The notes: a model not told the origin generated them from the sequence alone. 64,000 bases of DNA from an uncultured Methanosarcinales archaeon (GCA_964607225.1 CAZSIU010000001.1:18-64017), one strand, 5' to 3'; shown: positions 1,952 to 37,345, counted from the first letter of the stretch. A program made the numbers and translations.

Positions 1952-3220
1952 ATGACGTCAATAACAATAGTCGGATTGGGCTATGTGGGCTTGCCATTGG
2001 CATGCCTGTGTGTGGAAAAAGGCCTTGATGTGTATGGGGTTGATATAGACAAAAACAAGCTTTCATTAATAGAAAAAGGGATAAGCCCTATAGACGACCC
2101 TAATCTAAAAGATAAGGTAAAAGGGATAAAAGGAAAGCTCAAAGTCGCGGATGACTTTGGCAAAGCAATAAAAAGCTCTTCAGTCGTGATTGTTTGCGTT
2201 CCAACGCCAGTTGATAACAACCATCTTCCTGACCTAAGTCCATTAAAAAATGCGTGTGAAAGCATCTCAAAGCATCTTCAAGAAGATACCCTGGTAATAA
2301 TAGAATCTACAATCTTTCCCGGAACCACAGAAGATATCATTTTGCCAATATTAAAAAGCTCTGGCGTGAATTTTTACCTTGCTCACTGCCCCGAGAGGAT
2401 AGACCCGGGAAATAAAAGATGGAATGTTCAGAATCTTCCGAGAGTTGTTGGCGGCATTACAAAAGAAGCGGCAAAAAAGGCAACTGAGTTCTACAAAAAA
2501 ATCGTTGATGCCGAGATAACAGAACTGAGCAGCGTAAAAGCTGCAGAAGCCACGAAGATAATGGAAAACACTTTTAGGGACATAAACATTGCATTCGTGA
2601 ATGAGATGGCCATGAGCTTTGACAAAGCCGGAATAGACATATTGGAAGTGCTTAAAGGCGCATCTACCAAGCCGTTTGCCTTCATGCCCCACTATCCTGG
2701 AGCCGGGGTTGGCGGTCATTGCATAGCAATTGATCCATATTATTTAATCGCCAAGGCAAAGCAGATTGGATTTGATCATAATTTCCTGATTCTTGCAAGA
2801 AAAATCAATGAAGGCATGCCTCGGTATGCAGTTGAATTATTGGAAAAAGAATTAAAAAAACTGAATAAGAAAATTGAAAATTCAAAAATTGGAATTTTAG
2901 GGCTTGCATACAAGGCGAATGTTGATGATATAAGGGAAAGCCCTGCATTGAAAATAATAGATATTCTTAAGGAGAAAGGCGCAGAGGTTTTTGTCTTTGA
3001 CCCTCATGTGAGAAAAGGAAGTAATGTTAAGGATTTAGACGAGCTATTGCAGAAAAGCGATTATATAATCCTGGTTACAGATCATGATGAGTTTAGGAAT
3101 ATTGATGTGGAGAAATTGAAGAAAAATAACATCAAAGTTATTATTGACGGGAAGAATTGCCTAGATAAAGAGAAGATAAAAGAAATGGGAATATCGTACC
3201 ACGGAATTGGGAGGTCTTAA
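1952..3220 (+). CDS. Nucleotide-sugar 6-dehydrogenase (UDP-GlcNAc/ManNAc dehydrogenase, WbpA/WecC-like)
   Basis: ITIVGLGYVGLPLA is the N-terminal NAD fold of this family. A central GGHC catalytic Cys motif (GAGVGGHCIAIDP) is present. The start was trimmed to MTSITIV. Confidence 0.85.
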   Translation: MTSITIVGLGYVGLPLACLCVEKGLDVYGVDIDKNKLSLIEKGISPIDDPNLKDKVKGIKGKLKVADDFGKAIKSSSVVIVCVPTPVDNNHLPDLSPLKNACESISKHLQEDTLVIIESTIFPGTTEDIILPILKSSGVNFYLAHCPERIDPGNKRWNVQNLPRVVGGITKEAAKKATEFYKKIVDAEITELSSVKAAEATKIMENTFRDINIAFVNEMAMSFDKAGIDILEVLKGASTKPFAFMPHYPGAGVGGHCIAIDPYYLIAKAKQIGFDHNFLILARKINEGMPRYAVELLEKELKKLNKKIENSKIGILGLAYKANVDDIRESPALKIIDILKEKGAEVFVFDPHVRKGSNVKDLDELLQKSDYIILVTDHDEFRNIDVEKLKKNNIKVIIDGKNCLDKEKIKEMGISYHGIGRS

Positions 3221-4125
3221 CTATTCTGGTTTCTGAACCCAAGAATCTTCCTTATTCCTTCCCTTATCATGGTTTTCGGCTCCCAACCAAGGGTTTTCAT
3301 CTTTGAAATGTCTGGTATCCTATATTCAATTTCCCTTTCCTTCAGTCTCGTATCTTTTCCAAAACCTGCTTTCACTATCTCTGATTTGCTTCCAGTTGCT
3401 TCTTTTATTATGTTGGCTAGCTCTAGTATGGTGGTTGGATGGTTGTTTCCTATGTTATAAGCCTCCCCTGTTTTTCCTTTTTCAACAACCTTCATTACTG
3501 CCTCTATAATATCACCAACATAAGTAAAGCATCTGGTCTGGCTCCCATCCCCAAATATTTCTATTGGCTCATTTTTAAGAGCTTTATTTATGAAGATTGG
3601 AACAACAAATTTTGGCGATTGCCTATGCCCGTATACATTGAAAAACCTCACTATCTTTATATCGCTCCTGAACTCATGGTTGTAGGATTTTGCATATATT
3701 TCTGCTGCAAGTTTTGAGACACCATACACAGAAATAGGGCATTTTACGCTGCCCTCCCTTATGGGCAATTCGCTTGGGTTTCCATACACTTCTGAGGAAG
3801 ACGCATAAATCATGTGTTTGACTCCTGCCTCTACCGATGATTTAAAGACATTCACAGAGCCCTCAAGATTGATCCTCATCGTCTCCAAAGGCTTGTTATC
3901 AGAATTCTCTACCCCAAGGATAGCTGCAAAATGAAATACTATGCCGGAGCCCTTAATGTCTTCTGCCAGCTCATCCATAACTGATTTATTAATCCATTTA
4001 AGGTTATCATGTTTAACATCTGGCTCTGCTAAATCAAGCACTTTTACCTTATATCCTTGCTTCAGAAGATGTTCAATTAGGGGTAATCCGATAAGGCCAG
4101 AGCCTCCTGTGACGAATGCTTTCAT
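3217..4125 (-). CDS. NAD-dependent epimerase/dehydratase (UDP-hexose 4-epimerase-like)
   Basis: Motifs are MKAFVTGGSGLIG, YASSSEVYG and YGVSKLAAE (YxxxK). Confidence 0.8.
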   Translation of the reverse strand: MKAFVTGGSGLIGLPLIEHLLKQGYKVKVLDLAEPDVKHDNLKWINKSVMDELAEDIKGSGIVFHFAAILGVENSDNKPLETMRINLEGSVNVFKSSVEAGVKHMIYASSSEVYGNPSELPIREGSVKCPISVYGVSKLAAEIYAKSYNHEFRSDIKIVRFFNVYGHRQSPKFVVPIFINKALKNEPIEIFGDGSQTRCFTYVGDIIEAVMKVVEKGKTGEAYNIGNNHPTTILELANIIKEATGSKSEIVKAGFGKDTRLKEREIEYRIPDISKMKTLGWEPKTMIREGIRKILGFRNQNS

Positions 4126-4170
4126 GGGAAGAAGTTTTATCTAGGTTGTTTATAAAATTAACTGTGGGCT

Positions 4171-5277
4171 TTAGTTCTTAAAATGGTCAACCAAAACTTT
4201 GACAATCCTTTGTGCGGCTTTGCCATCCCAAAGCTCTGGAATTTTATTTCTGAAATTTACCTTATTATCTATAACTTCGAATGCCTTTTTTATCACTCTT
4301 TCTTTAGTAGTGCTGACTAAGAGGTTTGTGCCCTGCTCAACAGTAACAGGCCTTTCCGTATTATTCCGCAGGGTAATGCAAGGAACGCCTAAAACAGTTG
4401 CCTCTTCCTGTATGCCTCCAGAATCAGTCAGAACAAGCTTGCTGTTATCCATCAGACATAGAAAGTCAAGATACCCCAATGGCTCTGTCAATGTTAAGTT
4501 TTCCATACCCTTTACTTTCTCCAATAACCTGTATTTTGTTATGCTTCCATTGCTTCTTGGGTGTGTGGGGTATATAACCTTAATATGTTTCTGGATTTCA
4601 TAAATTATATCCAAAATCCTGTTAAACATCACCTCGTTATCCACATTGCTCGGCCTATGCAGTGTCAAGGCTGCATAATTTTTCTTGGTAATATTTAATT
4701 TTTTTAGTATATCCGAACTTTTAGCCTTTTCCCTGTGGCCCAATAAGGTGTCTATCATGACGTTCCCGACAAAAAATATCTTTCTTTTGTCTATGCCCTC
4801 ATTGGCAAGGTTTCTATTTGCAGCTTCTTCTGTAGTGAATAAAAAATCAGCAATCCTGTCTGTCATGACCCTGTTAATTTCTTCTGGCATACCCATATCA
4901 AAGCTCCTTAAACCAGCTTCGACATGAGCGACTTTTATCCCTAATTTCTTTGCTGTTAACGTGCAAGCCAAAGTGGAATTGACATCTCCTACTACAACAA
5001 CAAGATCAGGAATTATTTTGTGCAATATCTTCTCAAATCTTACCATTACCTCTCCTGTTTGCAGCGCATGGCTTCCAGAACCGACTTCAAGGTTTATATC
5101 GGGCTTGGGTATCTTTAAATCCCTAAAAAATAATTTTGAAAGCTGCTTGTCATAATGCTGTCCTGTATGTACAAAAATATGTTCAATCTCTTTGTATTTG
5201 CCCATCTCTTTTATTAATGGGGCTATCTTGACGAAATTTGGTCTTGTGCCTGCTACACTTACAACCTTAATTTTCAT
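4171..5277 (-). CDS. UDP-N-acetylglucosamine 2-epimerase, non-hydrolysing (WecB/WbpI family)
   Basis: MKIKVVSVAGTRPNFVKIAPL...HTGQHYD...DSGGIQEE are diagnostic motifs of this epimerase family. Confidence 0.9.
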   Translation of the reverse strand: MKIKVVSVAGTRPNFVKIAPLIKEMGKYKEIEHIFVHTGQHYDKQLSKLFFRDLKIPKPDINLEVGSGSHALQTGEVMVRFEKILHKIIPDLVVVVGDVNSTLACTLTAKKLGIKVAHVEAGLRSFDMGMPEEINRVMTDRIADFLFTTEEAANRNLANEGIDKRKIFFVGNVMIDTLLGHREKAKSSDILKKLNITKKNYAALTLHRPSNVDNEVMFNRILDIIYEIQKHIKVIYPTHPRSNGSITKYRLLEKVKGMENLTLTEPLGYLDFLCLMDNSKLVLTDSGGIQEEATVLGVPCITLRNNTERPVTVEQGTNLLVSTTKERVIKKAFEVIDNKVNFRNKIPELWDGKAAQRIVKVLVDHFKN

Positions 5278-10024: not shown

Positions 10025-11515
10025 ATGCGTAAAAAGTTAATTAGAGGTAAATACAAAAACACTATTTTACTTGGGCTAATACTAATTTTTGCGCTTGTAT
10101 TAAGATTGGTATTTTTTACCGGAGTAGACGAATCAGATTCTCTCAGTTATGTCGAATTTGCCAACATGCTTTCACAAGGTGAATCACTTAAAGATGTAAA
10201 GCCTCATGGCTTTAGACTTGGAATCATATTTCCTGTTGCAGTTTTATATTCAACCTTAGGGGTTAGCGGATTTACATCTAGCATATTGATATTGTTAATT
10301 TCGCTTGCTTCTATTGTTCTGATTTATAAGTTTGGCGTGATGTTGTTTAACCAGAAAGTAGGATTATTGAGCGCATTTTTATTAAGCTTCTTTCCTCTGG
10401 ATGTTGTATATTCAACTAAATTTATGACAGACCTACCATCCGCATTTTTTGTGGCATTATCAGTATACTTTTTCTTAAAATCGGAAAAAGTAGATAAAAA
10501 GAAAAGTGCCAATTCATATTGTCTTTTTTCAGGTTTATCTTTAGGGATAGCATATTTAATGAAAGAACTATCTTTGATAATAGCTTTATTTTTTATAATT
10601 TATACATTTTACAACAAAAAAATAGAAAATAGATATTTTTTAATACCATTGGGATTTATTTTAATAATTAGTTTGGAATTTGTATTTTTCTTTAAACTCA
10701 CTGGAAATCCTTTTTTTAGGTATTCCGCAATTAGTTCTGACTGGGCTAATGCCATTATAGAAACAAATATGTATGGAAGAGGAGATTTCCCTATAGGCTT
10801 ATTCCATTATTTTTATTTCATATTTACTGATCACTTTTTGGTCCTGTTTTATTCATTCATCTTTGTATCTGTGTTTTATTGTATAGCAAATAGGAAAAAA
10901 GAAACATACCCTATGCTTTTTTGGTTTATCCCATTACTTCTTTACCTCAGTTTTGGCTCAGCCAACATTACTAAATATGTGCTCATACCTGCTGCTTCAA
11001 GATTTTTATTTATAATAAATGTCCCGGGGATATTGCTACTATCACATTTCCTGTCACAAAAAGAACCATCAATAAAAAAAATTTTAATGCCTAGTATATT
11101 GGCATTATTATTAGCAACATCAATTGGTTATATTTACCTTTCAGAGCATAGATTTGTATTAGATGACGAAAGAGATGCATATAAATACTTAAAAGCTTTG
11201 CCTGAAAAACAAGTTTATACTGACCATAGAACTATAAGGATATTTAATTACCTTTCAGGGTATAAGGACAGCGATAATATCAAAAGCTTTAATAATTACG
11301 AATTCTTAAATCCAAAAAATACTTATGCACTGAACCTAAGTAATGTAAAAGACTCCTATGTTGTCATAAACTGGAAATTGATAAACTATTTTGCTTCCAG
11401 CAAAAAAGGTATTGTATTTCCTAAAGAGATCTATTATACTCCACAAACTTGGATTTTAAAAAAAGAGATTGAAAAAAAGGGAAAAGATAAGATTATGATA
11501 TATTATGCTCCTTAA
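10025..11515 (+). CDS. GT-C fold membrane glycosyltransferase (ArnT/PMT family 39-like)
   Basis: It has more than 10 predicted TM helices. The DVVYSTKFMTDLPSAFF loop resembles the ArnT/PMT family. It is 496 aa. Confidence 0.65.
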   Translation: MRKKLIRGKYKNTILLGLILIFALVLRLVFFTGVDESDSLSYVEFANMLSQGESLKDVKPHGFRLGIIFPVAVLYSTLGVSGFTSSILILLISLASIVLIYKFGVMLFNQKVGLLSAFLLSFFPLDVVYSTKFMTDLPSAFFVALSVYFFLKSEKVDKKKSANSYCLFSGLSLGIAYLMKELSLIIALFFIIYTFYNKKIENRYFLIPLGFILIISLEFVFFFKLTGNPFFRYSAISSDWANAIIETNMYGRGDFPIGLFHYFYFIFTDHFLVLFYSFIFVSVFYCIANRKKETYPMLFWFIPLLLYLSFGSANITKYVLIPAASRFLFIINVPGILLLSHFLSQKEPSIKKILMPSILALLLATSIGYIYLSEHRFVLDDERDAYKYLKALPEKQVYTDHRTIRIFNYLSGYKDSDNIKSFNNYEFLNPKNTYALNLSNVKDSYVVINWKLINYFASSKKGIVFPKEIYYTPQTWILKKEIEKKGKDKIMIYYAP

Positions 11516-12201: not shown

Positions 12202-12365
12202 TTTCTTGAAAAAGAATACAAAAATTTATAAAATATTCGGTTTTAAGGATTAGTTGAAGAAAGAAAAAAGAATTACACAAAAATAGGTTGGATAAAATAC
12301 TTTTTTAATATAACTGATGAGGGATTAAAATAAACAACAAATATAGAAATACTATTAGCCTGAGT

Positions 12366-13802
12366 TTGATTCTAATATTTGCTCTAATATTGAGGTTAAT
12401 CTTTTTTACAGGTATAGATATGTCAGATTCTGTGGGGTATGCAGGATATGCAAATATGCTTGCAAAAAATGAACCAATTGAAGAAACTCATTATAATGGT
12501 TTAAGACTCGGAATATTATTTCCTGTGTCTCTATTATATAATATTTTTGGAGTTAATGAGTTTTCATCTAATATATTGATATTGCTTATATCTTTAAGTT
12601 CTATTATCTTAATATATAAATTTGGCAAACTCCTATTTAATGATAAAGTTGGTCTATTAAGTGCATTTCTATTAAGTTTTTTTCCTTGGGATGTGGTATA
12701 TGCAACCCAGCTTTTGACTGATTTGCCAGCTGCTTTTTTTGTCGCAGTATCCATATATTTCTTCTTAAAATCAGAAATGATTAGAGATAGTGCAAAATCA
12801 AATATTTACTGTCTTTTTTCTGGTTTGTGGTTAGGCATAGCTTTTTTGACTAAAGAATTATATTTAATCATAGGTTTGTTTTTTATATCTTATATTTTGT
12901 ATAAGAAGAAAATAAAAATTAAGTATTTTTGGATAGCATTGGGATTTATTTTGATTTTCAGCTTTGAATTGATATTTTTCTTTAATACTACTGGAGACCC
13001 TTTTTATAAGTACTCTGCAATAAGCGCCTATTGGACACCAGTTCTTTCAGTGACAAATCATTATGTAAGAGAAGATTTTCCATCAGCTTTGTTTCATTAT
13101 TTTTACCTCATATTCACTGATGATTTTTTAGTCATATTCTATTCTCTTATATTTATAGCTATAGTTTATTGTATAGTTAACAAAAAAAAAGAGACTTATA
13201 CTTTATTATTTTGGTTTATACCAGTATTTTTTTACCTCAATTTTGGTTCAATTAGCATTGCTAAGTATATTCTGATACCGGCCAGCCCAAGGCATTTATT
13301 CATATTAAGCATCCCGGCAATATTGCTGCTATCATTTTTCTTATTGCAAAGAGATCAAATCATAAAGAGGATTTTAATGCCTTCTATGCTCATATTATTG
13401 TTAACTACTTCAGTTGGCAATGTCTATGTTTCGGAATTTAGATTTTCGGTCGACGATGAAAAAGAGGCCTACAACTATCTAAAGACTTTGCCAAACAAAC
13501 AGATTTATACTGATTACAAGACCATAAGGATTTTTAATTATCTTTCTGGATTTAAAAGCAATAATACCAAAAGTTTTCACAATTACGAATTCTTAGATCC
13601 AGAAAATACTTATGCTTTGAATTTAAGTAAAGCAAAAGATTCGTATGTTGTTATAAACTGGAATTTGATAAATTTCTTCGTTTCTAGCAAAAAGGGTATT
13701 GAACTTCCTGATGAAATTTATAACATTCCAGAAAATTGGATATTAAAAAAGGAGATCGGGAAAGGTAAAGATAAGATTATGATATATTATGCATCTAATT
13801 AA
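12366..13802 (+). CDS. GT-C fold membrane glycosyltransferase, tandem paralogue of 10025-11515
   Basis: Identity to the upstream paralogue is high throughout (ILIFALILRLIFFTGIDMSDS...DVVYATQLLTDLPAAFF). There is no in-frame ATG; the apparent start is TTG at 12366, and a stop lies 36 nt upstream. Confidence 0.6.
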   Translation: MILIFALILRLIFFTGIDMSDSVGYAGYANMLAKNEPIEETHYNGLRLGILFPVSLLYNIFGVNEFSSNILILLISLSSIILIYKFGKLLFNDKVGLLSAFLLSFFPWDVVYATQLLTDLPAAFFVAVSIYFFLKSEMIRDSAKSNIYCLFSGLWLGIAFLTKELYLIIGLFFISYILYKKKIKIKYFWIALGFILIFSFELIFFFNTTGDPFYKYSAISAYWTPVLSVTNHYVREDFPSALFHYFYLIFTDDFLVIFYSLIFIAIVYCIVNKKKETYTLLFWFIPVFFYLNFGSISIAKYILIPASPRHLFILSIPAILLLSFFLLQRDQIIKRILMPSMLILLLTTSVGNVYVSEFRFSVDDEKEAYNYLKTLPNKQIYTDYKTIRIFNYLSGFKSNNTKSFHNYEFLDPENTYALNLSKAKDSYVVINWNLINFFVSSKKGIELPDEIYNIPENWILKKEIGKGKDKIMIYYASN

Positions 13803-26142: not shown

Positions 26143-26799
26143 ATGATTAAAGCTGTTATTTTTGATGCTGGCGATGTGGTTTACTACAGGGATGAAGTAA
26201 CCTTAAAGCCTATGCTTGATTTTTTAAGGAAAAATGGCTTCAATATATCTGCAAAAGCATTCTTAAAAGCATATGACGCAAATTCACTGGCACTTTACAA
26301 AGGTAAAGTTTCAAAAGATGATAATCTAAAAAATGTATTAAAGTTTCTGAAAATAAGATTTAATGAGCAGTTTTTTGACAAATTTGCAAAAATTTTTAGA
26401 AAGAGTTTTTCTGATATTAAAATCAAAGAGAATGTCTATGAAATTTTTGAAAGAATTAAATCTAAGGGTATGAAAATAGCTGTTTTGACTGATACTTTTT
26501 CTTCAGAAGAAAAAAAATGGGAATGGTTTAAAAGCATCGATGTTGCGCAATTCATAGACATTATTGTATGTTCAAGTGTAACAGGATTTACAAAAGATAA
26601 AAAAGAAGCATATACAATAACGCTACAAAAATTAAATTTGAAGCCTAAAGAGGCTATTTTTGTTGGGCATAAAAAATATGAAATGACAGGCGCTAAGCTT
26701 GCTAACGTAAAATCTGTTTCATTGGAGAAAGACGCTGGCGCAGATTATTATGTCAGCTATATTTCTAATATTTTAAATTTGATTTATAAGCTTAATTAA
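26143..26799 (+). CDS. HAD-superfamily hydrolase/phosphatase
   Basis: IKAVIFDAGDVVY is HAD motif I (DxD), and VGHKKYEMTGA resembles motif IV. The start was trimmed to M37, where a proper ATG is present. Confidence 0.7.
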   Translation: MIKAVIFDAGDVVYYRDEVTLKPMLDFLRKNGFNISAKAFLKAYDANSLALYKGKVSKDDNLKNVLKFLKIRFNEQFFDKFAKIFRKSFSDIKIKENVYEIFERIKSKGMKIAVLTDTFSSEEKKWEWFKSIDVAQFIDIIVCSSVTGFTKDKKEAYTITLQKLNLKPKEAIFVGHKKYEMTGAKLANVKSVSLEKDAGADYYVSYISNILNLIYKLN

Positions 26800-27544
26800 A
26801 TTTTTTCTTTGCATTTTCCAGATCTTCCATTGTATCAATTTCAGCATAGTTTTTGCTGCTTGTATAAATTGGATATATTTTAAATCCTTTTTTAATAAAA
26901 TCCATCAATAAATACGAAGGAGAAGGGTATTTTTTGATCTCGCCACTTTTGATTAATTTAAAAATTCTGGCTTTGATTATTTGGATGCCTTTTCTGCTGA
27001 ATCTTGCCACTCCTATGTATTTGCCGCTTGTTTCATCATGCGATAAGCTCTTTGATATTTTTTTAACGAACCCTTTTGATATGTAAACTTTTGTATAGCC
27101 TTTTATTATTTTCATCCCTTTGTATTTTTCTATCAACTGCGGGTTTTCATCAAAATACTTCCCTTTTTCAATAGCAAGGCAAAAATCTTTTTTGCATCTT
27201 AATAGGCTCTTAACTATATCCGGCTTGAAAATTATGTCGCCATAGACTAAAATTGTTTCATCATTCAATTCATTTTTAGCTTTAAAAAGGCTTTCTAGCA
27301 GTCCTGTTGTCTCGTAATCTTTGTTTAGATAAAACTTGACATTTTTATTTCGTAATTTTTTCTTTACCCTATCAGCCTGATACCCTACCACGACACTTAT
27401 GTCATCAATTCTGTTCAACTTCAACGCATTGATTTGATGTTCTATTATGGGTTTGTTTTGAAGTTTTATCATGCATTTTGGCGTTCTCTGCCCTAGCCTT
27501 CCAAGCCTTTTCCCAGCTCCTGCTGCAAGTATTATTGCTTTCAT
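26792..27544 (-). CDS. LicC-like sugar/alcohol-phosphate nucleotidyltransferase (candidate phosphonate/phosphoalcohol cytidylyltransferase)
   Basis: MKAIILAAGAGKRLG...PKCMIKL matches the LicC/PntC-type NTP-transferase N-terminus. It is 250 aa. Confidence 0.7.
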   Translation of the reverse strand: MKAIILAAGAGKRLGRLGQRTPKCMIKLQNKPIIEHQINALKLNRIDDISVVVGYQADRVKKKLRNKNVKFYLNKDYETTGLLESLFKAKNELNDETILVYGDIIFKPDIVKSLLRCKKDFCLAIEKGKYFDENPQLIEKYKGMKIIKGYTKVYISKGFVKKISKSLSHDETSGKYIGVARFSRKGIQIIKARIFKLIKSGEIKKYPSPSYLLMDFIKKGFKIYPIYTSSKNYAEIDTMEDLENAKKKFN

Positions 27545-28179
27545 TTTATTTTATTTAGTATATCTTTCAATGCTTCTTCTGTTAGTTTTCTCGGGTTATT
27601 TTTTACTCTGTCTGGGTTAAACCCGTTTTTTATGATTATATTTATATCATTATCTGTTTTTATCCCTAAATCACTTAATTTTGTACTTAATCCTATATTT
27701 TCATTAAGGCTGTAATTCTTTTACTTGCATCTTCAATATTTTTTGCGTCGATAAAGCTAACAATTTCGTTTATATTTTTTAACATAATCAACACCTCTTT
27801 TGTCTAATAAATCTTGTTTTGTAACTTGTGAATTGTAAACAATCATAGGAGCAATTGTCAATGCAACTGCATGGCCATGAGGAACATTGAAATAGGATGT
27901 TATTGGATAAGAAATTGCATGACAAGCAGTTGTTTTTGTAATATTAATTGCATTTCCCAGTCCTGCATTTTGCATATAAACTAATCCAATTTTTCCAGTA
28001 GCAAGAGCAATTGCATTGCCTTCATTTGCAGCAATAATATGTTTTCGTCTTTTTGCATTATCCATTATATATGCGTTAAAGTCTTTAAGCAAAGAGTCAG
28101 GGACGCCAGTAAAAAAATCAATGCCATTTTTTACCAGATAATCGTAGATAGAACGTTGGCTATAAAGTGGATGGTGATT
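27545..28179 (-). pseudogene. Chimeric relic: the 5' part of ppd' (phosphonopyruvate decarboxylase, lacking its ATG) joined in-frame to the 3' part of adh', with a large internal deletion
   Basis: Positions 27958-28179 are about 75-80% identical to ppd 32161-32390. Positions 27776-27957 are 100% identical to adh 30363-30544. Positions 27545-27775 are a diverged copy of adh 30125-30362. The junction falls on an 8-bp 'gcatttcc' (GNA codons) shared by both genes. Confidence 0.8.
27776..27957. repeat. About 182-bp perfect direct repeat of adh 30363-30544 inside the relic
   Basis: The match is base for base, while the flanks have diverged. Confidence 0.85.
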
Positions 28180-28932
28180 TTATTCTCCGCCAGTAACATC
28201 AAGAATTGTGTTGGTAATAAACGTACTTCTTGGACCCGCAAGAAATAACACGGCATTTGATATTTCAAAAGGCTCGGCAAGTCTTTTTAACGGTATATAA
28301 TTAATACGAGCTGAAAGATCATTTCTACCTATCTTCTTATGAAAGGGAGTTTTTGTAGCACCTGGCCTAACAGCATTAACTAATACATTAAATGGAGCTC
28401 CTATCTTAGCAAAAGCTTTTGTTAAAGCTTCAAGAGCTGCCTTTGATGCACTATAATGCATAGTAGCTTCACCACCTCCATGTTGCCAGCCGCCGCTACT
28501 AATGTTTATGATCCGTCCATTACGCTTCTTAGACATAATAGAAAAAGCAGCACGGCTTAATAAAAATGGAGCTTTAAGATTCACTTGAAAGGTTCTATAC
28601 CATGCTTCTTCCGATAGGTTTTCAAAAGAAGTGGGCTTATAAACAAATCCGGCATTGTTGACTAATACATCGATACGCCCTTTACTCCACAATACAAATT
28701 TCTTCCACAGGGCATTAACTTCCTGAGAATTAACAAAATCTGACTTAAAAATTTTACATTGGTTATTCTTAGCGTATTTTAACAGCTTTCTTGCACCTTC
28801 CCTATTATCGCAATAATGAGCTCCTACAAAAGCTCCTTCTAAAAGAAAATCTTTGGCTATCTGAAATCCTATGCCACTACTTGAACCAGTAACAAGAATA
28901 TATTTATTTTCGAATTGCTTCTTGTCTTTCAT
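28180..28932 (-). CDS. Short-chain dehydrogenase/reductase (SDR)
   Basis: It has ILVTGSSSGIGFQIA (TGxxxGIG), NNAG and YSASKAALE (YxxxK). Confidence 0.85.
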   Translation of the reverse strand: MKDKKQFENKYILVTGSSSGIGFQIAKDFLLEGAFVGAHYCDNREGARKLLKYAKNNQCKIFKSDFVNSQEVNALWKKFVLWSKGRIDVLVNNAGFVYKPTSFENLSEEAWYRTFQVNLKAPFLLSRAAFSIMSKKRNGRIINISSGGWQHGGGEATMHYSASKAALEALTKAFAKIGAPFNVLVNAVRPGATKTPFHKKIGRNDLSARINYIPLKRLAEPFEISNAVLFLAGPRSTFITNTILDVTGGE

Positions 28933-29821
28933 AATAATCTTCCCATTTGCCTACAAATTCCCCACCCATCAACATTCCATTTGCATCGCAACTATTGCAT
29001 GGAATCTGATCTCGATCAGCCTTAGCTAATTTTACTCTAACCCGTTTCAATGTTTCACTATTCCAAATCTCTAAAATAGATTTTTCCTTAACATTGCCTA
29101 AAATCAATCTTTTATCCCAATCATGGGAGCATAGGACTACAGCACCGTCATAATCAATTAAAGTCTGATAAAATGGATAAAAACACTTCCTTTTAAGAGG
29201 GCTTTTTAGTTTTACTAAGCCAATATCTGGCATTATTTTTGCTCCTGCCCGATTAGAAAGTGTAATGCCAAAATGTTTCTCTGGTGTAAACCAACGTTGT
29301 CTTATACTGAACTGTTCATTACTTAAACCCGTTGCATCTCTCATCTCTTCAAAACGCTTTACTTTGTCTGGACCATCATAAACGCTAACGCCAATCTGAG
29401 TGAGACCCGCTGCAAAAAACTTATTAAGCTTCTCAACAGTTAGAAAATCACCATTAGTCACCATTTCAATCCGTACTTCTGGACAATATTGTTTGGATAA
29501 TCTTATTACTTCTTCTAAATGCCTATAAAGCAAAGGTTCGGAAAATGCAGAATAGAGTATATTTCCCTTGAATCCTACTTTGCTGAGGTCGGACATAACC
29601 TTTTCATACACTTCAATCTGAAGATGTTTATTGGTATTAGGCCAATTCGGATTACTGCGTGGGCAGAAACTACAAGTTCTATTGCATAAATCGCTAAGGT
29701 TGAATTCAATCCAAGAAAAAAGAGGGGGGTCATTTTTATTTACACGCTCTGGATCTTGGCCCTCCATGAATTTACTTTTGCGTGTTATATTTGGATCAAT
29801 AAAAATATATTTTCTTTCCAT
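28904..29821 (-). CDS. Radical SAM enzyme with C-terminal SPASM/twitch-like Cys cluster
   Basis: It has CNRTCSFC (CxxxCxxC), and the C-terminal region carries CFYPF...CSHDW...CNSCDANG. It is 305 aa. Confidence 0.75.
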   Translation of the reverse strand: MERKYIFIDPNITRKSKFMEGQDPERVNKNDPPLFSWIEFNLSDLCNRTCSFCPRSNPNWPNTNKHLQIEVYEKVMSDLSKVGFKGNILYSAFSEPLLYRHLEEVIRLSKQYCPEVRIEMVTNGDFLTVEKLNKFFAAGLTQIGVSVYDGPDKVKRFEEMRDATGLSNEQFSIRQRWFTPEKHFGITLSNRAGAKIMPDIGLVKLKSPLKRKCFYPFYQTLIDYDGAVVLCSHDWDKRLILGNVKEKSILEIWNSETLKRVRVKLAKADRDQIPCNSCDANGMLMGGEFVGKWEDYYERQEAIRK

Positions 29822-30124
29822 TTTCCTTTTTTACGAAATAGTACCATTACTATTTAATTCTTTCTATGATCAATTATTTCTCTGTTATCCTGAAACTGGT
29901 TCCAGTCACGAAACTATAGCAAATCACACTAATATTCGTATCTTTTCATTGTGATTTGCTTATTAGGAAATAATAAATGTATACGAAAATTAAAGTTATT
30001 TCCTATAATTCCGTTTTGTAAGCTCTTATTTCTTCAAACTTAAATCTTACATTTTTAGAGCAGTTCATAAAAGCTTCTTTATATTACAATAAAGTTATGG
30101 TTGTTCTATATAGAATAAACACTT

Positions 30125-31276
30125 TCATCTTATTTCATACAAAATCCCTCTCAAAGTTTCTTCCGTCAATTTTCTCGGATTATTGTTAACCCTATCTGGA
30201 TTAAAACCATTCCTTATAATTATTTCTATATCTTCATCAGTTTCAATTCCCAATTCAGACAGCTTGGTACTTAAACCAATTTCTTTCATTAGGTTAGTTA
30301 TTTTTTCTGATGCTTCTTCAGCATTACTTGCACCAATTAATTCGACAATTTCTTTAATTGTGTTTTTAACATAATCAACACCTCTTTTGTCTAATAAATC
30401 TTGTTTTGTAACTTGTGAATTGTAAACAATCATAGGAGCAATTGTCAATGCAACTGCATGGCCATGAGGAACATTGAAATAGGATGTTATTGGATAAGAA
30501 ATTGCATGACAAGCAGTTGTTTTTGTAATATTAATTGCATTTCCAGCTAAATGAGCTGCTTTTGTCATTGTTCCTCTTGATATTTCTGAAGAATTATTCA
30601 CTGCTAATGGAATATTTTTAATAATAAGTTTGATTGCCTCTCTTGAATATTTTTTTGATTCGTCAGTTGAATTGATAGACCAGTATGATTCTATAGCTTG
30701 TGATAAAGCATCCATGCCGGTAAAAGCTGTTATATGTGCTGGCAGATTCATCGTAAATTGCGGGTCAACAATCGCATATTCAGGAATAATAAAATTATGG
30801 GTTAAAGTATATTTTACTTTGTCTTTGTATAAAACTGCATATCTTGTTGCTTCGCTGCCTGAACCAGAAGTTGTAGGTATAGCAACTGTAACTTTTCCTT
30901 TATTTTTTATTTTTGTTGGGTTGTTAATATATTCTATGAAAGACTTTTCTTCATTGCTAGCGAATAAATTAACAGCTTTTGCAATATCTAATGTAGTTCC
31001 ACCACCTACAGCTATAACAAAATCACAGTTATTCTTTTTAAATAATTCAAGCCCTTTCTTAATATCATCAAACTTTGGATTTACTTCAAATTCAGTAAAA
31101 TCGACAACATTGTAATTTCTTAGAATTTTGTTGAGTATCTTCTTTGCCCCACATTTTTCATAAGAATTCTTTCCAGTAACCAAAAAAATATTTTTAGGTT
31201 TATGTTTTAGTAATATGTTCCTCAAATTGTTTATAGAATTAAAACCAAAATATTCTTGCTGTCTCATTTTTATCAT
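30125..31276 (-). CDS. Group III iron-containing alcohol dehydrogenase (phosphonoacetaldehyde reductase-like, giving 2-hydroxyethylphosphonate)
   Basis: It has the GGGTTLDIAK motif of the Fe-ADH family and HGHAVALT metal-binding histidines. It is translationally coupled to ppd by an ATGA overlap. Confidence 0.8.
   Translation of the reverse strand: MIKMRQQEYFGFNSINNLRNILLKHKPKNIFLVTGKNSYEKCGAKKILNKILRNYNVVDFTEFEVNPKFDDIKKGLELFKKNNCDFVIAVGGGTTLDIAKAVNLFASNEEKSFIEYINNPTKIKNKGKVTVAIPTTSGSGSEATRYAVLYKDKVKYTLTHNFIIPEYAIVDPQFTMNLPAHITAFTGMDALSQAIESYWSINSTDESKKYSREAIKLIIKNIPLAVNNSSEISRGTMTKAAHLAGNAINITKTTACHAISYPITSYFNVPHGHAVALTIAPMIVYNSQVTKQDLLDKRGVDYVKNTIKEIVELIGASNAEEASEKITNLMKEIGLSTKLSELGIETDEDIEIIIRNGFNPDRVNNNPRKLTEETLRGILYEIR
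30363..30544. repeat. Partner copy of the 182-bp perfect repeat (inside the functional adh)
   Basis: See 27776-27957. Confidence 0.85.
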
Positions 31277-32388
31277 TGAAGAAATTTCATAAAATCTTCC
31301 TTATTCTCTATCGGCGTCTTAGTAGGCCTCCCCAAGTTTTTCCTAGCACCTTTATTTATTATTACTTCTAATAAAATAGGTCCTTCCATTTTACTCATTT
31401 TTCCTACTTTATCAATTATTTCTTCTTTTGTCTCTGCTGAAAAAGCATCTTTATAGCCACAAGCTTTTGCAATCTTAGGAATATTAATATTAAATGCGGC
31501 AGTTGGCTGCCCCCCAACAGAATCGTGAGCATAATTATTAAATACAATATGTTTGAAATTTTTTGGTTTAAGTTGTCCAATTATTGCTAACGCCCCCATA
31601 TGCATAATTAAGGCTCCATCTCCATCAAAACAATAAACGTCTCTATCAGATTTTTTAAGTGCGATTCCCAAGGCAATAGAGGAAGAATGTCCCATACTTC
31701 CCACTGTGAGAAAATCTTTTTCGTGCCCTTGCTTAGTTGCTTCTCTTAGCTCAAAAAGCTCTCTTGACGTTTTTCCTGTAGTTGAAACTACAATATCATC
31801 ATCATGTAGCAGTGGGGCGATGATTTTTATAGCCTCTTCCCTGTTTAATTCATAATTTGTTTTTATTTTATTTTTTAGTTTATATTCCTGGAAAGTTCCT
31901 TTACTGACAACTATTGCATATGGTGATTTTTTATTTTTCATATAATTAATCGCTTCCTTTATTGTATCTTCATAACTATCTTCTAATATTTTATAAGGTA
32001 TTTCCAATGTATCTAATAATTTTAGTGTAATCTTGCCCATCTTAACATGTTGAGGTTCATCTTTTTTTCCTGGCTCGCTTCTCCAACCTATAATAAGTAA
32101 CATGGGTATTGAATAAACATCTGGATCAGCAAGCGACGTAAGAGGATTTACAGCATTTCCTTCTCCGGAATTCTGCATATAAACCAATCCAAACCTCCTA
32201 GTAGCTAGATGATATCCTGCTGCAAGTGCAACTGCATTACCTTCATTAGCTGCAATAATATTTCTTTCATCTGGTGTATTATCAGCAACATAAGCACAAA
32301 AATCTTTAAGTAGAGAATCTGGGACTCCAGTAAAAAAATCAATTTTATTTTCTATTAGTTTATCATAAAAATTTTTACAAGATATCAT
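31273..32388 (-). CDS. ppd: Phosphonopyruvate decarboxylase (thiamine-diphosphate dependent)
   Basis: The N-terminus MISCKNFYDKLIENKIDFFTGVPDSLL and GDGALIMHMGAL (TPP-binding GDG) are present. It lies immediately downstream of the PEP mutase. Confidence 0.85.
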   Translation of the reverse strand: MISCKNFYDKLIENKIDFFTGVPDSLLKDFCAYVADNTPDERNIIAANEGNAVALAAGYHLATRRFGLVYMQNSGEGNAVNPLTSLADPDVYSIPMLLIIGWRSEPGKKDEPQHVKMGKITLKLLDTLEIPYKILEDSYEDTIKEAINYMKNKKSPYAIVVSKGTFQEYKLKNKIKTNYELNREEAIKIIAPLLHDDDIVVSTTGKTSRELFELREATKQGHEKDFLTVGSMGHSSSIALGIALKKSDRDVYCFDGDGALIMHMGALAIIGQLKPKNFKHIVFNNYAHDSVGGQPTAAFNINIPKIAKACGYKDAFSAETKEEIIDKVGKMSKMEGPILLEVIINKGARKNLGRPTKTPIENKEDFMKFLQ

Positions 32389-32414: not shown

Positions 32415-33713
32415 TCATTTACTTCCTGGAATTAATGTGAGCACTTCATTTATTGGCAAGCAATATTTATCTGCTTCATGACATCTTCCGTGTTTCAATA
32501 TAGTTTCTGCTGTTTTTATCATGGCAGGATATGCACTTCTCAGCAAATGATTTGCATAAATTACAATATTTACGCCAGCGTCAATTAATTCTTGCTCTGT
32601 AATAGTGTTATACGTTGTTGGTACTACAACCAAAGGAGCCTTATTCTTAATTTTCTTATATTCTTCACAAAAATCTAAAACTTCTTTTGTATCTTTTTCC
32701 TTGCTATGAATCATTATTCCATCCGCACCTGCATCAATGTAAGCTTTCGCTCTTTTTATTGCGTCATCTACCCCTTTTTTTAATATCAAGCTTTCTATCC
32801 TAGCTATAATCATAAAGTCTTCATTAACCTGAGCTTTTTTTCCTGCCGTTATTTTTCGACAAAAATTTTCTATTGAATCTTGTTGCTGCTCAACTTCTGT
32901 TCCATAAAGTGAATTTCTCTTTGGACCGATTTTATCTTCTATAATCACAGCAGATACTCCAATCCTCTCCAGAGTCTTGACTGTATATACAAAATGCTCA
33001 GCTAAACCACCTGTGTCTCCATCTACAATCATAGGTTTGGTAGTTACCTCAAAAATATTATCTATTGTTTGAAGTCTTGATGTTAAATCTACCAATTCAA
33101 TATCTGGCTTACCTTTGGAAGTCGAATCTGTCAAGCTGCTTTGCCACATTCCGTCAAATTCCCTTACATTATCGTCTTCAACCAATTTGATTTTTTCCAC
33201 TATTCTTCCGGTAAGTCCATTATGAACTTCCATAATCCTTACTAAGGGTTTAAGTTGAAGCAATTTTCTTAATCTCTTAAGTCTAACCTCTGGAGTAGTC
33301 CCTATGTCACTCATTTTATCAATCAATTCTGATGCGGAAACATCCCTTGTAGATTCAGGCTCTACTAGCTTACCGCCCCACTCTTTAAGATATTCTATTA
33401 CTCTTGCTCTAACTCCTTTTTGAATACCTGTTCGCCAGTCTGTGCCGTGTATAACATAGTCTGGCTTAAGTTTTTTAAGGTTGGGGACATAGTCTAAGGT
33501 TTCCTGGGGTATAACTTCACTTACACCCTTAATGTTTTCTATTATTTTTTTCCTCTGTTCGTATGTCAGGAGTGGAAGCCTTTTATAAGTGGCAATAGCC
33601 TCATCTGTCAATAATCCTACAGTTACATTTCCCAATTTTCTTGCTACTTCTATAATATTTATATGTCCATGATGAATTATATCAGTGCTCATTCCTACAT
33701 AAACTTTTTTCAT
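32415..33713 (-). CDS. pepM: Bifunctional N-terminal HxGH cytidylyltransferase / C-terminal phosphoenolpyruvate phosphomutase (Fom1-like architecture)
   Basis: The N-domain reads [13 protein letters not shown]. The C-domain carries [10 protein letters not shown] at residues 259-268, which matches the PepM-specific EDKxxxxxNS motif exactly, plus VDGDTGG. Confidence 0.88.
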
Positions 33714-33716
33714 TTT

Positions 33717-34256
33717 TTAATTCTCCTTTTTGTAAATCTTAATGATTTTATTGACGATGTTCTCAGTTGACAATTTTTCATAGAATGGTGGTTGTATAAC
33801 TTCCCCGTTGATTTTTTTAATATATTTAGCCCCGGGGACTTTTTTCCAGTTTGAACCACAAACTAGAATTAATTTTGCATTTTGAAATTGCTCATGAATT
33901 TTTTTTAAATTTGCTGTAGGATCCAAAGAGTTCTGAACCATAACCATATCTATACATCTAAGAGATGAAACTATGGACTTTCTATCTTTTAAACTAGCAA
34001 TTGGAGCTTCCCTATATGATTTAATTGCATCGTCAGTTAAAACACCACAAACATGAAAATCCCCAAGCTGATTTGCAATCAGCAACGATCTAAGTTGTCC
34101 GTAATGAAAAAGATCTCCTGTAGTAGAACTATAAACGACAGAGTTAATTTTATCTTTTTCAACAGCTACAATATCTCCTTCTTTAATTCCAGAGCCTTTA
34201 GGTATTGTAACACATAACTGACCATTAGATTTATTCGCCCACACTACTTTTTTCAT
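33717..34256 (-). CDS. Small-barrel domain plus TagD-like cytidylyltransferase domain protein
   Basis: TGDLFHYGQLRSLLIANQLGDFHVCGVLTDD aligns to the (H/F)xGH-type CTP-transferase core. Confidence 0.55.
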   Translation of the reverse strand: MKKVVWANKSNGQLCVTIPKGSGIKEGDIVAVEKDKINSVVYSSTTGDLFHYGQLRSLLIANQLGDFHVCGVLTDDAIKSYREAPIASLKDRKSIVSSLRCIDMVMVQNSLDPTANLKKIHEQFQNAKLILVCGSNWKKVPGAKYIKKINGEVIQPPFYEKLSTENIVNKIIKIYKKEN

Positions 34257-35105: not shown

Positions 35106-36341
35106 TTAAAACCACCTTGTTGATTCTGTATGGACTCTTTCCAGGCCCTCCTGTCCTGAATACTTGTATATTAATGCAAGATCTTTTAATGGGTCTCCCT
35201 CTTCAGGTTTGATTTCCATTACGATTAATTTTCCTTCCTTATCACCAGTATTCCTAAATGAGTGAGGTACATTTGGTTGAATAAAAAAAGAAGTGCCTGG
35301 TTTCAATATTTGCTCATTACTTCTCCAGAGAAACATAACTGGAGTGTTTCCAACATTATAACCCCAACGGTCTGCATCCACGTTAATATCTAATGTTCTT
35401 TCTTCCTTCACTCTTTTAACAATATATTCAAATGCTTTCGTATGGGGTTGATTTGGGATTCCATTAATTAGTTCTCTCCACTTATAAGCATCATTCTCTT
35501 TTGAGGAGGCATCTTTATTTTTTCTCACTATTACACCCTCAAGTTCATCTGTAACTAGGTTTTCTTCAACTTTGGGTAATTTTTTCTTATAAGAGGATTG
35601 ATAATCATCAAGATCCATAGATTTTATTTTTGTCTGAAATTCATCTGTCGCAACTGCTCCTCCATAAGTAACCGCAAGAATCAATCCCTTTCCCTCTTCA
35701 CGTGTAGTAAAAGTATGAGGAACAAATGGCGTAATATAATTGATGTCTCCAGTATTCATTTTCCGCACGTGTTTATTGCCTTTTTTGTCAATCCAGTAAA
35801 AATTTACCGTCCCAATGAAATAAGTAATTTGATATTCAAAATGGCCTTTGTTAAATGCCCAATCAGGTACATTTGCGTCATTTCCATCATGGACGTAGCG
35901 CTCCACGATCCATTCGGGCCTGAAAGTAGATGTCTTTGACATTGCAGTGTCTCCATAATCATAATATGGAACTTTTTGGCCGTCACTCTGACCCCTCATA
36001 AATGTTCGTTGAGTTTCCTTCCTTTGTTCAGCAGTAAAAATAAGAACACCGTCATTTGTATCATCTTTAATTTTAAACTTATGCCTATGATTAGGATCAA
36101 ATAATTTACGTACATCCAAAGGAGAATGATTATCTACTGCATTAACAATTTCTGATGTTAGGGGTTTTTTCCCGTTCATAACTGCTTCAAGGTAAACTGG
36201 GTCTAAATTGTGTATATCAGCAAAACTAATTGAAGTTTGTTTTACTCCATTTAAAAGGCCTCTGAGTATTGGTCCAGCATTTTTAGCATAAGGGACGTCA
36301 GAAAAATTTTTATTTTCTCTTACTTCCATTTTTTGTTCCAT
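35106..36341 (-). CDS. mpnS: Bi-cupin 2-hydroxyethylphosphonate dioxygenase family; residue pattern favours methylphosphonate synthase (MPnS) over HEPD
   Basis: It has two cupin modules (…PFVPHTF… and …PNVPHSF…). The first-cupin triad is H167-x3-Q171...H209 (2-His-1-Gln). F sits 14 residues and I 36 residues downstream of the first His, matching the Phe162/Ile184 gate recalled for N. maritimus MPnS; HEPD has Tyr/Gly there. A GGAGGT Shine-Dalgarno sequence lies 8 nt upstream. Confidence 0.7.
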   Translation of the reverse strand: MEQKMEVRENKNFSDVPYAKNAGPILRGLLNGVKQTSISFADIHNLDPVYLEAVMNGKKPLTSEIVNAVDNHSPLDVRKLFDPNHRHKFKIKDDTNDGVLIFTAEQRKETQRTFMRGQSDGQKVPYYDYGDTAMSKTSTFRPEWIVERYVHDGNDANVPDWAFNKGHFEYQITYFIGTVNFYWIDKKGNKHVRKMNTGDINYITPFVPHTFTTREEGKGLILAVTYGGAVATDEFQTKIKSMDLDDYQSSYKKKLPKVEENLVTDELEGVIVRKNKDASSKENDAYKWRELINGIPNQPHTKAFEYIVKRVKEERTLDINVDADRWGYNVGNTPVMFLWRSNEQILKPGTSFFIQPNVPHSFRNTGDKEGKLIVMEIKPEEGDPLKDLALIYKYSGQEGLERVHTESTRWF

Positions 36342-36355: not shown

Positions 36356-36459
36356 GAAAATTTAGATATTGCACATAAATCTTAATAAGAATGCCATATT
36401 ATTTATAAATATTTCACCGAAAGGCTTAAATATAATAATTTGGGGTTAGAAGACGAAAT

Positions 36460-37239: not shown

Positions 37240-37345
37240 ATGACTAACTTGTTTTATCCCAAGTTTACTTAATTTTATTTATAAATCTTTTACCGATAGG
37301 TTTAAATACTATAAATTCGAATTATTTAATAAAGTCTCTTTAGTT

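Follow-up and report, generated by a model that had tools for sequence, protein, structure and literature searches.

We analysed a 64,000-nucleotide stretch of metagenome-assembled DNA (the window; GCA_964607225.1 CAZSIU010000001.1:18-64017), which is deposited as an uncultured Methanosarcinales archaeon and whose host is a DPANN-type archaeon. The subject is a gene relic of 635 nt in its phosphonate operon (positions 27545-28179, minus strand), which lies between the stop codon of an SDR gene (28180-28182) and the start codon of the nucleotidyltransferase (NT) gene NT1 (27542-27544). The relic is a dead chimera, in which the beginning of a phosphonopyruvate decarboxylase gene (ppd') is fused in frame to the end of an Fe-ADH gene for phosphonoacetaldehyde reductase ('adh). 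It is very probably the remnant of a second, diverged ppd-adh pair that was left behind when a tailoring module of a radical-SAM/SPASM gene and an SDR gene was inserted, with a microhomology joint and a recent recombination between two adh sequences. The live genes, ppd1 (31273-32388) and adh1 (30125-31276), lie in the same operon and together occupy 30125-32388, on the minus strand like all the operon genes around the relic.

Anatomy of the chimeric pseudogene

The relic was compared with ppd1 and adh1 by BLASTN and exact-match searches. On one side, 27538-27957 aligns to 30122-30544 of adh1 (349 of 423 positions identical), and on the other, 27950-28146 aligns to 32153-32367 of ppd (150 of 216, with a gap of 18 nt). 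Exact matching extends over at most 182 nt, 27776-27957 being the same as 30363-30544; this repeat, R, spans Adh codons 245-304 and 2 nt more. A single reading frame contains the ppd-like part, R and the last 51 adh codons, and the 'adh part amounts to the last 139 codons of the reductase gene. These results bear out the original prediction, made from the sequence alone, of a chimeric ppd'-'adh pseudogene with a 182-bp stretch identical to the live adh and an in-frame join to its last ~140 codons.

The ppd' segment (27958-28167, minus strand) comprises approximately the first 72 codons of a second ppd. A comparison of start regions shows homology from codon ~4 onwards, at a distance of 12 nt from the SDR stop, and downstream of that stop the relic has no start codon. 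Its translation is 60% identical to Ppd residues 1-81 (tblastn), and its nucleotide identity to ppd1 is 69% with gaps counted, 76.5% with gaps excluded and 68% over codons 1-75. The loss of the ATG had thus been read correctly, whereas the predicted identity of 75-80% over about 75 codons does not hold once gaps are counted. An in-frame deletion of 18 nt between 28006 and 28007 removes six codons (GYHLAT) that all homologs keep.

At the other end, the diverged 3' end of the second adh, D2 (27541-27775, minus strand), drops directly beyond R to 69.7% nucleotide identity with adh1 (71% in amino acids to the live 3' end). The divergence of this distal part was as predicted, but it carries two frameshifts instead of one: a +1 shift at the edge of R, in a T6 run at 27775-27780 of the plus strand (an extra A on the minus strand), and a -1 shift 75 nt further on, in a T4 run at 27698-27701 of the plus strand (a missing A on the minus strand). 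When both are undone, an uninterrupted open reading frame (ORF) appears that is 71% identical to the live Adh C-terminus. The relic does not run without a stop into the NT gene, as had been supposed, since its adh stop TGA (27541-27543) overlaps the NT1 start as ATGA, the identical arrangement being found in adh1 and in the relatives.

About 1.6 kb is absent between Ppd codon ~77 and Adh codon 245. The relic is unable to encode an enzyme because it lacks a start codon, has lost 18 nt in a conserved Ppd segment and this 1.6 kb, and carries two frameshifts. Whereas a phosphonopyruvate decarboxylase shows a full-length TIGR03297 match above the cutoff together with TPP_enzyme_N and TPP_enzyme_C, and an Fe-ADH shows PF00465 and PF25137, TIGR03405, and a nucleotide-binding and a complete metal-binding domain in one frame, the relic shows neither set, its PF25137 match covering profile positions 64-112 only. 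It combines homology, disabling lesions and a missing start, which makes it a pseudogene, and no function would be expected of it.

A 111-aa ORF within the relic (27757-28092, minus strand) has nevertheless been called as protein P0143 (source 'ncbi') on the source contig. In NCBIfam its N-terminal half matches TIGR03297 (profile 12-67) and its C-terminal half TIGR03405 (profile 242-289), with 51.7 and 25.7 bits against cutoffs of 312 (312.5) and 424. That P0143 is a functional small chimeric protein seems scarcely credible to us: the frame is open, was called as a protein and keeps the region of the Adh metal-binding His motif, but its start would be a TTG within ppd' and its end is the first frameshift, the two ThDP domains of Ppd and the nucleotide-binding domain of Adh are all absent, its profile scores are far below the cutoffs, and a protein query found no homolog of this architecture. 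P0143 should be annotated as a pseudogene fragment, and any reconstruction of the pathway should allow for a single ppd and a single adh.

The junction and Asn246 of the live Adh

The two parental alignments overlap on GCATTTCC, where 27950-27957 equals 30537-30544 and 32153-32160, so that the junction falls on microhomology, as predicted. This overlap of 8 nt (GGAAATGC, 27950-27957), common to ppd1 and adh1, is beyond chance for parental alignments meeting at a joint, but the two genes share as many as 116 8-mers, and the junction site is therefore one of many possible ones, unless the real match was 15 nt long. Such a match, GGAAATGCAATTAAT, may possibly have existed with the lost ppd2, since the Ppd G-N-A-I-N and Adh G-K-A-I-N sequences have this motif in common. 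The crossover would then lie somewhere within 27943-27957 (minus strand). At the junction motif, the ppd of the related locus L153 has GGAAATGCAATAAAT where the relic has GGAAATGCAATTAAT, and the Asn of the Ppd motif is present in 104 of 104 Ppd fragments.

The live copy of R (30363-30544, minus strand) contains the codon of Asn246 (AAT, 30539-30541). This position is Lys in 116 of 121 Adh homologs, none of the others having Asn, and it is one of just three at which adh1 departs from residues that are at least 95% conserved. The T of the Asn246 codon is the very base that converts Adh to Ppd sequence within the junction motif. A lineage-specific change from Lys to Asn may have come first, creating a long perfect match that afterwards served as the recombination site. 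Conversely, the T may have come from the ppd side and have been carried into adh1 by the homogenisation of R, in which case sequence flowed from the pseudogene to the gene. A rough weighing gives neither reading the edge. This coincidence is the one point that we single out for follow-up, since the locus allows a possible flow of sequence from pseudogene to gene (Lys246Asn) to be put to the test.

The 182-bp repeat is real and recent

Over the segment of R, orthologous adh genes are 75-87% identical to adh1, with exact runs of only 17-38 nt, which excludes chance as the source of the 182-nt identity (estimated at 0.85^182, ~1e-13). Recent copying is the only reasonable reading. The relic copy (27776-27957, minus strand) has a diverged homolog on one flank (70% identity) and the non-homologous ppd' on the other, an arrangement compatible with gene conversion, although other mechanisms look alike.

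The original prediction had advised a check for collapse or mis-joining across the repeat, and we made it at the level of assembled contigs. Strain collapse or mis-joining deserves consideration because the source is a metagenome-assembled contig and an exact repeat of 182 bp exceeds typical k-mers and read lengths. Exact-protein look-ups of the SDR and NT1 retrieved six contigs (L001-L006) from four assemblies, namely ENA ERZ27284375, ERZ27284376 and ERZ27284378 (MEGAHIT-style names, k119/k139) and Logan SRR8863434 (k 31), and all six are 100% identical to the window. The ppd'|adh joint is present in all four assemblies, with 30-139 nt of R past the joint. L002 (k139) starts 139 nt from the end of the live R, runs through the adh1 3' end, the spacer, the radical-SAM gene, the SDR gene and ppd', and stops after 139 nt of the relic R; L004 (k119) stops 119 nt into the relic R, and L003 (Logan) 30 nt into it. 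From the other side, L005 (108 kb) begins 139 nt before the end of the relic R and continues into D2 and NT1, and L006 begins at the first base of R and comprises all 182 nt, followed by D2 and NT1. L001 (k119) ends 99 nt into the relic R; it and L006 are less tidy than the contigs with ends at exactly one k-mer length. That L002, L004 and L005 end one k-mer length (139, 119 and 139 nt) inside R is the hallmark of a true exact repeat with two copies.

The assembly graph at R has two edges in, two out and one loop, and its single linear path is that of the window. With SDR-ppd'-R present in assemblies at k = 119, 139 and 31, with R-D2-NT1 present in other contigs, and with an overlap of 8 nt unable to cause a mis-join at a k of at least 31, an assembly artefact is extremely improbable. 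The repeat itself is the reason why short-read assemblies of this population break here.

Between the adh body and the second R lies a block of 2587 bp comprising R, the adh1 3' end, an NT stub, a spacer, the radical-SAM/SPASM and SDR genes and ppd', and the second R runs on into D2 and the intact NT1. We considered a reversible excision switch operating via the two R copies and rejected it, because recombination between them would delete the module and yield a damaged adh with the frameshifted D2 as its 3' end. R is in this respect a liability and not a switch.

Relatives carry a single copy of the operon

Among 5.8 billion clustered proteins the best non-self match of Adh is 71% identical, and the matches that carry a name come from metagenome-assembled genomes (MAGs) of Woesearchaeota, Nanoarchaeota and Aenigmarchaeota. 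In the related loci L087, L088, L089, L090 and L153 the operon consists of CTP-transferase, CTP-transferase/PEP mutase, Ppd, Adh and NT, with an overlap of 4 nt at Adh. Past NT follow a HAD hydrolase on the opposite strand and an APH-like kinase in several relatives, a squalene-hopene-cyclase-like (SQHop-like) gene in two and a flippase in all. On either side of the anomaly, gene content and gene order in the window match those of the relatives. The predicted ancestral ppd-adh-NT order is supported, as these loci show it intact, in single copy and with the ATGA overlap. Neither a second ppd or adh nor a radical-SAM-SDR pair is found in L087, L088, L089/L090 or L153.

Directly after adh1, ATGAAAGTGTTTATTCTA (30111-30128) forms a 6-codon NT stub, which reads MKVFIL against the canonical MKAIIL. 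Because of this stub and of the ATGA overlap at the end of the relic, we conclude that both copies descend from canonical ppd-adh-NT operons. The stub and the spacer together occupy 29822-30128 (minus strand), with ~290 nt of non-coding sequence in which no NT homology is recognisable beyond those first 6 codons; a gene-free stretch of ~300 nt thus separates adh1 from the radical-SAM/SPASM gene. Exactly where the similarity to an NT start ends, at 30098-30121, there is an imperfect palindrome of 24 nt, TGGTTGTTCTATATAGAATAAACA, which may be a hairpin associated with the breakpoint or a chance occurrence in AT-rich DNA. An Rfam scan of 27300-30300 gave no match.

The intact second ppd-adh copy that the original prediction had hoped to see in related genomes was not found. 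A scan of genome contigs with the Adh alignment returned, among the matches listed, only distant ones of at most 61% identity and none from the genome of the window itself. Comparison of D2 with 120 Adh homologs, of ppd' with the fetched loci, and a protein query of ppd' joined to D2 gave nothing above ~74% amino-acid identity, the highest values among the sequences retrieved being 74% for D2 and 71% for ppd'. A truncated Adh in L153 (P0121) was tried as a second copy and rejected, as it comes from an operon of the usual single-copy form in which the 5' end of adh is damaged. At 3016-3482 of this locus (MAG GCA_964622655.1), the 5' third of adh has a change of frame and has lost ~17 codons, and only a C-terminal ORF of 221 aa is called; the broken gene could be a pseudogene or an assembly error.

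Origin of the second copy

Outside R, the two copies are only 68-70% identical and their third codon positions are saturated, unlike the near-identity throughout that marks a recent duplication. Differences at codon positions 1/2/3 number 17/12/42 between D2 and the live 3' end (78 codons) and 26/14/33 between ppd' and ppd1 (75 codons). This pattern of divergence under purifying selection implies that ppd' and D2 derive from a pair of genes that was formerly functional in another lineage. The divergence of ~30% is as large as that between operons of different genera, and a xenolog, or a very old paralog, fits better than duplication in situ. In its present place ppd' can hardly have been functional for long, since it has no start codon at the SDR joint.

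We also compared segments of the two adh genes, with A denoting the adh body before R and D1 the live adh 3' end after R. In nucleotides, the last 300 nt of adh1 before R are 77% identical to L153 and 70-71% to L087-L089, and R is 87% identical to L153 and 77-80% to L087-L089. This mosaic signal is weak; its bootstrap support is 0.93-0.995, and sliding windows put the change at the boundary of R. Protein comparisons with 121 homologs, made segment by segment, are star-like and carry no lineage signal. The live adh may be a mosaic with a foreign 3' end, or L153 may itself be the mosaic; we treat this as a lead only.

Across the relatives, identity to the window is 57-81% for Ppd and 76-79% for PepM (L088 6874-8004 compared with window 31273-32388), which suggests an exchange of ppd alleles between operon lineages. 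Other irregularities were seen in these loci. In L087 (JGI 3300022563), positions 4037-4420, between PepM and Ppd, hold an NT fragment of 127 aa (62% to residues 1-96 of NT2), followed by a remnant of an MPnS-like cupin (residues 353-411); judging from this further relic, scars of the kind may be frequent in operons of this group. Nanoarchaeota contigs (L007 9575-10000; L154 5117-5434; L011) contain PepM residues 1-201 directly before adh, an isolated Fe-ADH fragment of 105 aa and another incomplete PepM, which again points to DPANN phosphonate loci being rearranged often.

Proposed history and alternatives

In the reading that we favour, the recombination that imported the radical-SAM/SDR module would have brought two ppd-adh copies that were not identical, whole or in part, next to each other. 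Of these, the one adjoining the SDR gene would have lost its start at that joint and turned redundant. Microhomology-mediated illegitimate recombination at the common G-[N/K]-A-I-N motif would account for the ppd'|adh junction, and a recent recombination between the two adh sequences, be it gene conversion, template switching or the insertion event itself, for the 182-bp identity. The data fix neither the order nor the direction of these events. Our preferred order would lead from a two-copy intermediate to homogenisation and then, or simultaneously, to deletion: an arrangement ppd1-adh1-NT'-spacer-rSAM-SDR-ppd2-adh2-NT1 (rSAM, radical-SAM/SPASM) would have had part of its adh homogenised and would have lost 1.6 kb between the common motifs. 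If homogenisation came first, the R tract simply ends where the deletion cut. Within the favoured reading, insertion in one step is a serious minority possibility, a single repair event and an order with the deletion first are each given a smaller share, and homogenisation first takes the remainder.

Several observations weigh against the favoured reading. No genome with an intact second copy was found, so that the two-copy intermediate is deduced and not seen, and no near-identical operon free of the module was found either, the closest Adh being 71% and the closest radical-SAM protein 70% identical. A simple conversion from adh1 to the relic leaves Asn246 unexplained. Moreover, D1 is 70% identical to L153 and 75-76% to L087 and L088, whereas the relic 3' end is 75% identical to L153, and this mosaic signal fits A-R-D2 as the original gene, with no need of deletion or conversion.

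One alternative is the history first predicted, in which the ppd-adh-NT operon was duplicated in situ, the second copy suffered a microhomology deletion and a short conversion then ran from adh1 to the relic. It yields the structure observed, it invokes a junction microhomology and an exact tract that are both real, and both copies end in the canonical adh/NT ATGA overlap. However, a nucleotide divergence of ~30% with saturated third positions is unlike that of a within-genome duplicate, given that ppd' has no start codon, and the relatives are single-copy. The tract would also have to end precisely at the last homologous base, Asn246 would remain a coincidence of about 2-5%, and the lineage switch at R/D1 would be a further one. 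We regard this history as unlikely; of the recent gene conversion that it included, recent intragenomic recombination stands, while the sequence of deletion and then conversion is just one of several that fit, and the direction from adh to relic is not established, the unique Asn246 of the live enzyme lying in the junction motif. A staggered insertion in one step appears somewhat less remote, though still a minority possibility. Here A-R-D2 and NT1 would be native, and a foreign piece, made up of an adh 3' end, the NT stub, the spacer, the radical-SAM and SDR genes and a ppd 5' end, would have entered by a homologous crossover at the boundary of R with the 3' end and by microhomology at the G-N/K-A-I-N motif, 182 nt upstream, on the other chromosome copy, thereby duplicating R. 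Both the 1.6-kb deletion and the gene conversion become unnecessary, and both boundaries of R are explained without coincidence. The switch of affinity in adh1 at R/D1 and the position of L153 as closest to D2, A and R (bootstraps as above) fit as well, and so does the visibly mosaic nature of this group's phosphonate operons (the Ppd and PepM identities given above). Yet two odd joints (NT stub|spacer and SDR|ppd) must already have existed in the donor fragment, the evidence from phylogeny comes from segments of 180-300 nt and from one relative, L153, which is perhaps itself mosaic, the topology requires two chromosome copies, and Asn246 still calls for a pre-existing variant or a later homogenisation.

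The deletion and the identical tract could also have been made together, in the repair of a single double-strand break by synthesis-dependent microhomology-mediated end joining, with the break in the second copy being resected and the end of adh2 invading adh1, copying 182 nt and annealing to the microhomology in ppd2. In this case the identity tract abuts the junction exactly, as observed, its other boundary lies in an A-run with a +1 slip and, with Asn246 in adh1, the annealing site could have been a perfect match of 15 nt. Priming would be needed between sequences ~70-85% identical, and the Asn246 unique to adh1 would go unexplained; this proposal is doubtful. Both the single repair and homogenisation followed by deletion need more steps, or a coincidence. 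Finally, R may be the footprint of one event, an insertion of the radical-SAM/SPASM-SDR pair by homologous crossover and a microhomology joint at the Ppd/Adh motif, with subsequent flow from the joint into adh1 that turned Lys into Asn. We think this improbable; if true, the entry of accessory genes into the phosphonate operons of archaea that have a minimal repair machinery would have been caught in the act.

The surrounding operon and the inserted module

In transcription order the operon starts with a cytidylyltransferase (33717-34256) and a cytidylyltransferase/PEP-mutase fusion (PepM, 32415-33713; TIGR02320, 419.8 bits, cutoff 319.55), both on the minus strand. These are followed by ppd1 (TIGR03297, 508.7 bits, cutoff 312.5) and adh1, the latter identified as a phosphonoacetaldehyde reductase from the NCBI names of its homologs. 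The inserted module (28180-29821, minus strand) comprises the radical-SAM/SPASM gene (28904-29821) and the SDR gene (28180-28932), which overlap and were identified by Pfam matches. The pair sits where the second ppd begins, as was originally noted. NT1 (26792-27544, minus strand), a LicC/MobA-like nucleotidyltransferase according to Pfam (PF12804 and PF00483) and synteny in relatives, is contiguous with the relic and is the canonical downstream partner of adh through the ATGA overlap. The relic puts 635 nt between NT1 and the SDR gene, and the usual translational coupling of NT to adh is broken.

A scan of metagenomes with the radical-SAM protein gave 62 loci, in nearly all of which the SDR gene comes directly after it. 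In ~50 metagenome loci the pair adjoins genes for PepM, Ppd (often split), Adh, NT and sulfatase; L126 and L155 show the order Ppd-Adh-rSAM-SDR, and a Nanoarchaeota MAG (L154) has the pair near phosphonate genes. Identity reaches 64-70% for the radical-SAM protein and 74-79% for the SDR in the best cases. This lineage has thus acquired a pair of genes that recurs as an accessory of phosphonate clusters. A repeat scan around it revealed no terminal inverted repeats and no insertion-sequence-like ends. The G+C content is 35% over the block (28001-30000) against 30-31% in neighbouring 2-kb windows, a shift compatible with a foreign origin of the module.

Some further features of the window were observed. 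A cupin protein of 411 aa (35106-36341, minus strand) is closer to methylphosphonate synthase (PDB 6b9s, E = 2e-59) than to HEPD (6b9r, E = 6e-35); together with PepM, Ppd and Adh, it suggests that the locus could produce 2-hydroxyethylphosphonate and then methylphosphonate or hydroxymethylphosphonate. A direct repeat of 46 nt (36396-36441 and 37272-37317, 83% identity) lies in the intergenic regions on either side of NT2 and is possibly a common promoter or regulatory element. Two segments of 1.46 kb upstream of B12/radical-SAM genes (10049-11508 and 12339-13792) are 72% identical and probably represent paralogous genes.

Significance and comparison with known systems

The locus documents the remodelling of DPANN-type phosphonate operons by recombination between diverged operon variants, and it shows their uptake of the radical-SAM/SPASM-SDR module, which many marine phosphonate clusters contain. 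Current understanding of recombination and of phosphonate biosynthesis is unchanged by it. Its value lies in a correct annotation, in an explanation of the assembly breaks and in a small case study of DPANN operon remodelling.

The methylphosphonate cluster of Nitrosopumilus serves as a comparison system for the pathway. Operons for the decoration of surfaces with phosphonates, with nucleotidyl activation, are described by Rice et al. 2019 (PMC6697681) and Li and Horsman 2022 (PMC8942020). The window resembles such operons in its PepM with a cytidylyltransferase domain, Ppd, Fe-ADH, LicC-like NT, sulfatases and cupin of the MPnS/HEPD family, and differs from them in its DPANN-type host and in the extra radical-SAM/SPASM-SDR module and relic.

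Turning to mechanism, sharply bounded tracts of perfect identity in otherwise diverged homologs are also produced by gene-pseudogene conversion, of which human CYP21A2/CYP21A1P and bacterial cassettes of the pilE/pilS type are examples, and there too flow from the dead to the live copy is possible, as Asn246 might reflect. In the relic, by contrast, the tract has homologous sequence on a single side, nothing points to a process that is programmed or recurs, and the direction is a proposal. Synthesis-dependent microhomology-mediated end joining with templated insertions, described mainly in eukaryotes, likewise copies a tract off a homologous template and ends it at a microhomology joint, but the tract here is long (182 nt) and derives from a paralog 2.6 kb away. 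Homology-facilitated illegitimate recombination, which de Vries and Wackernagel and also Prudhomme and colleagues are said to have described in 2002 in natural transformation, combines a homologous anchor on one side with 3-10 nt of microhomology on the other and would bring the radical-SAM-SDR pair into the operon. The microhomology joint is present here and a lineage switch at R/D1 is weakly suggested; in the classical cases, however, recipient DNA is deleted, whereas here 182 nt would be duplicated.

Closest to the relic are prokaryotic gene remnants left by microhomology-mediated (illegitimate) recombination, a known class. Like these, it is an in-frame fusion of unrelated genes at a short common sequence, with homopolymer indels and a lost start. 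It differs from them in that its microhomology falls not at a random place but where Ppd (G-N-A-I-N) and Adh (G-K-A-I-N) have a motif in common, and in that an exact 182-bp copy of the live gene adjoins it. The relic thus belongs to a familiar class of gene remnants; as a scar of operon remodelling it is ordinary, but unusually legible.

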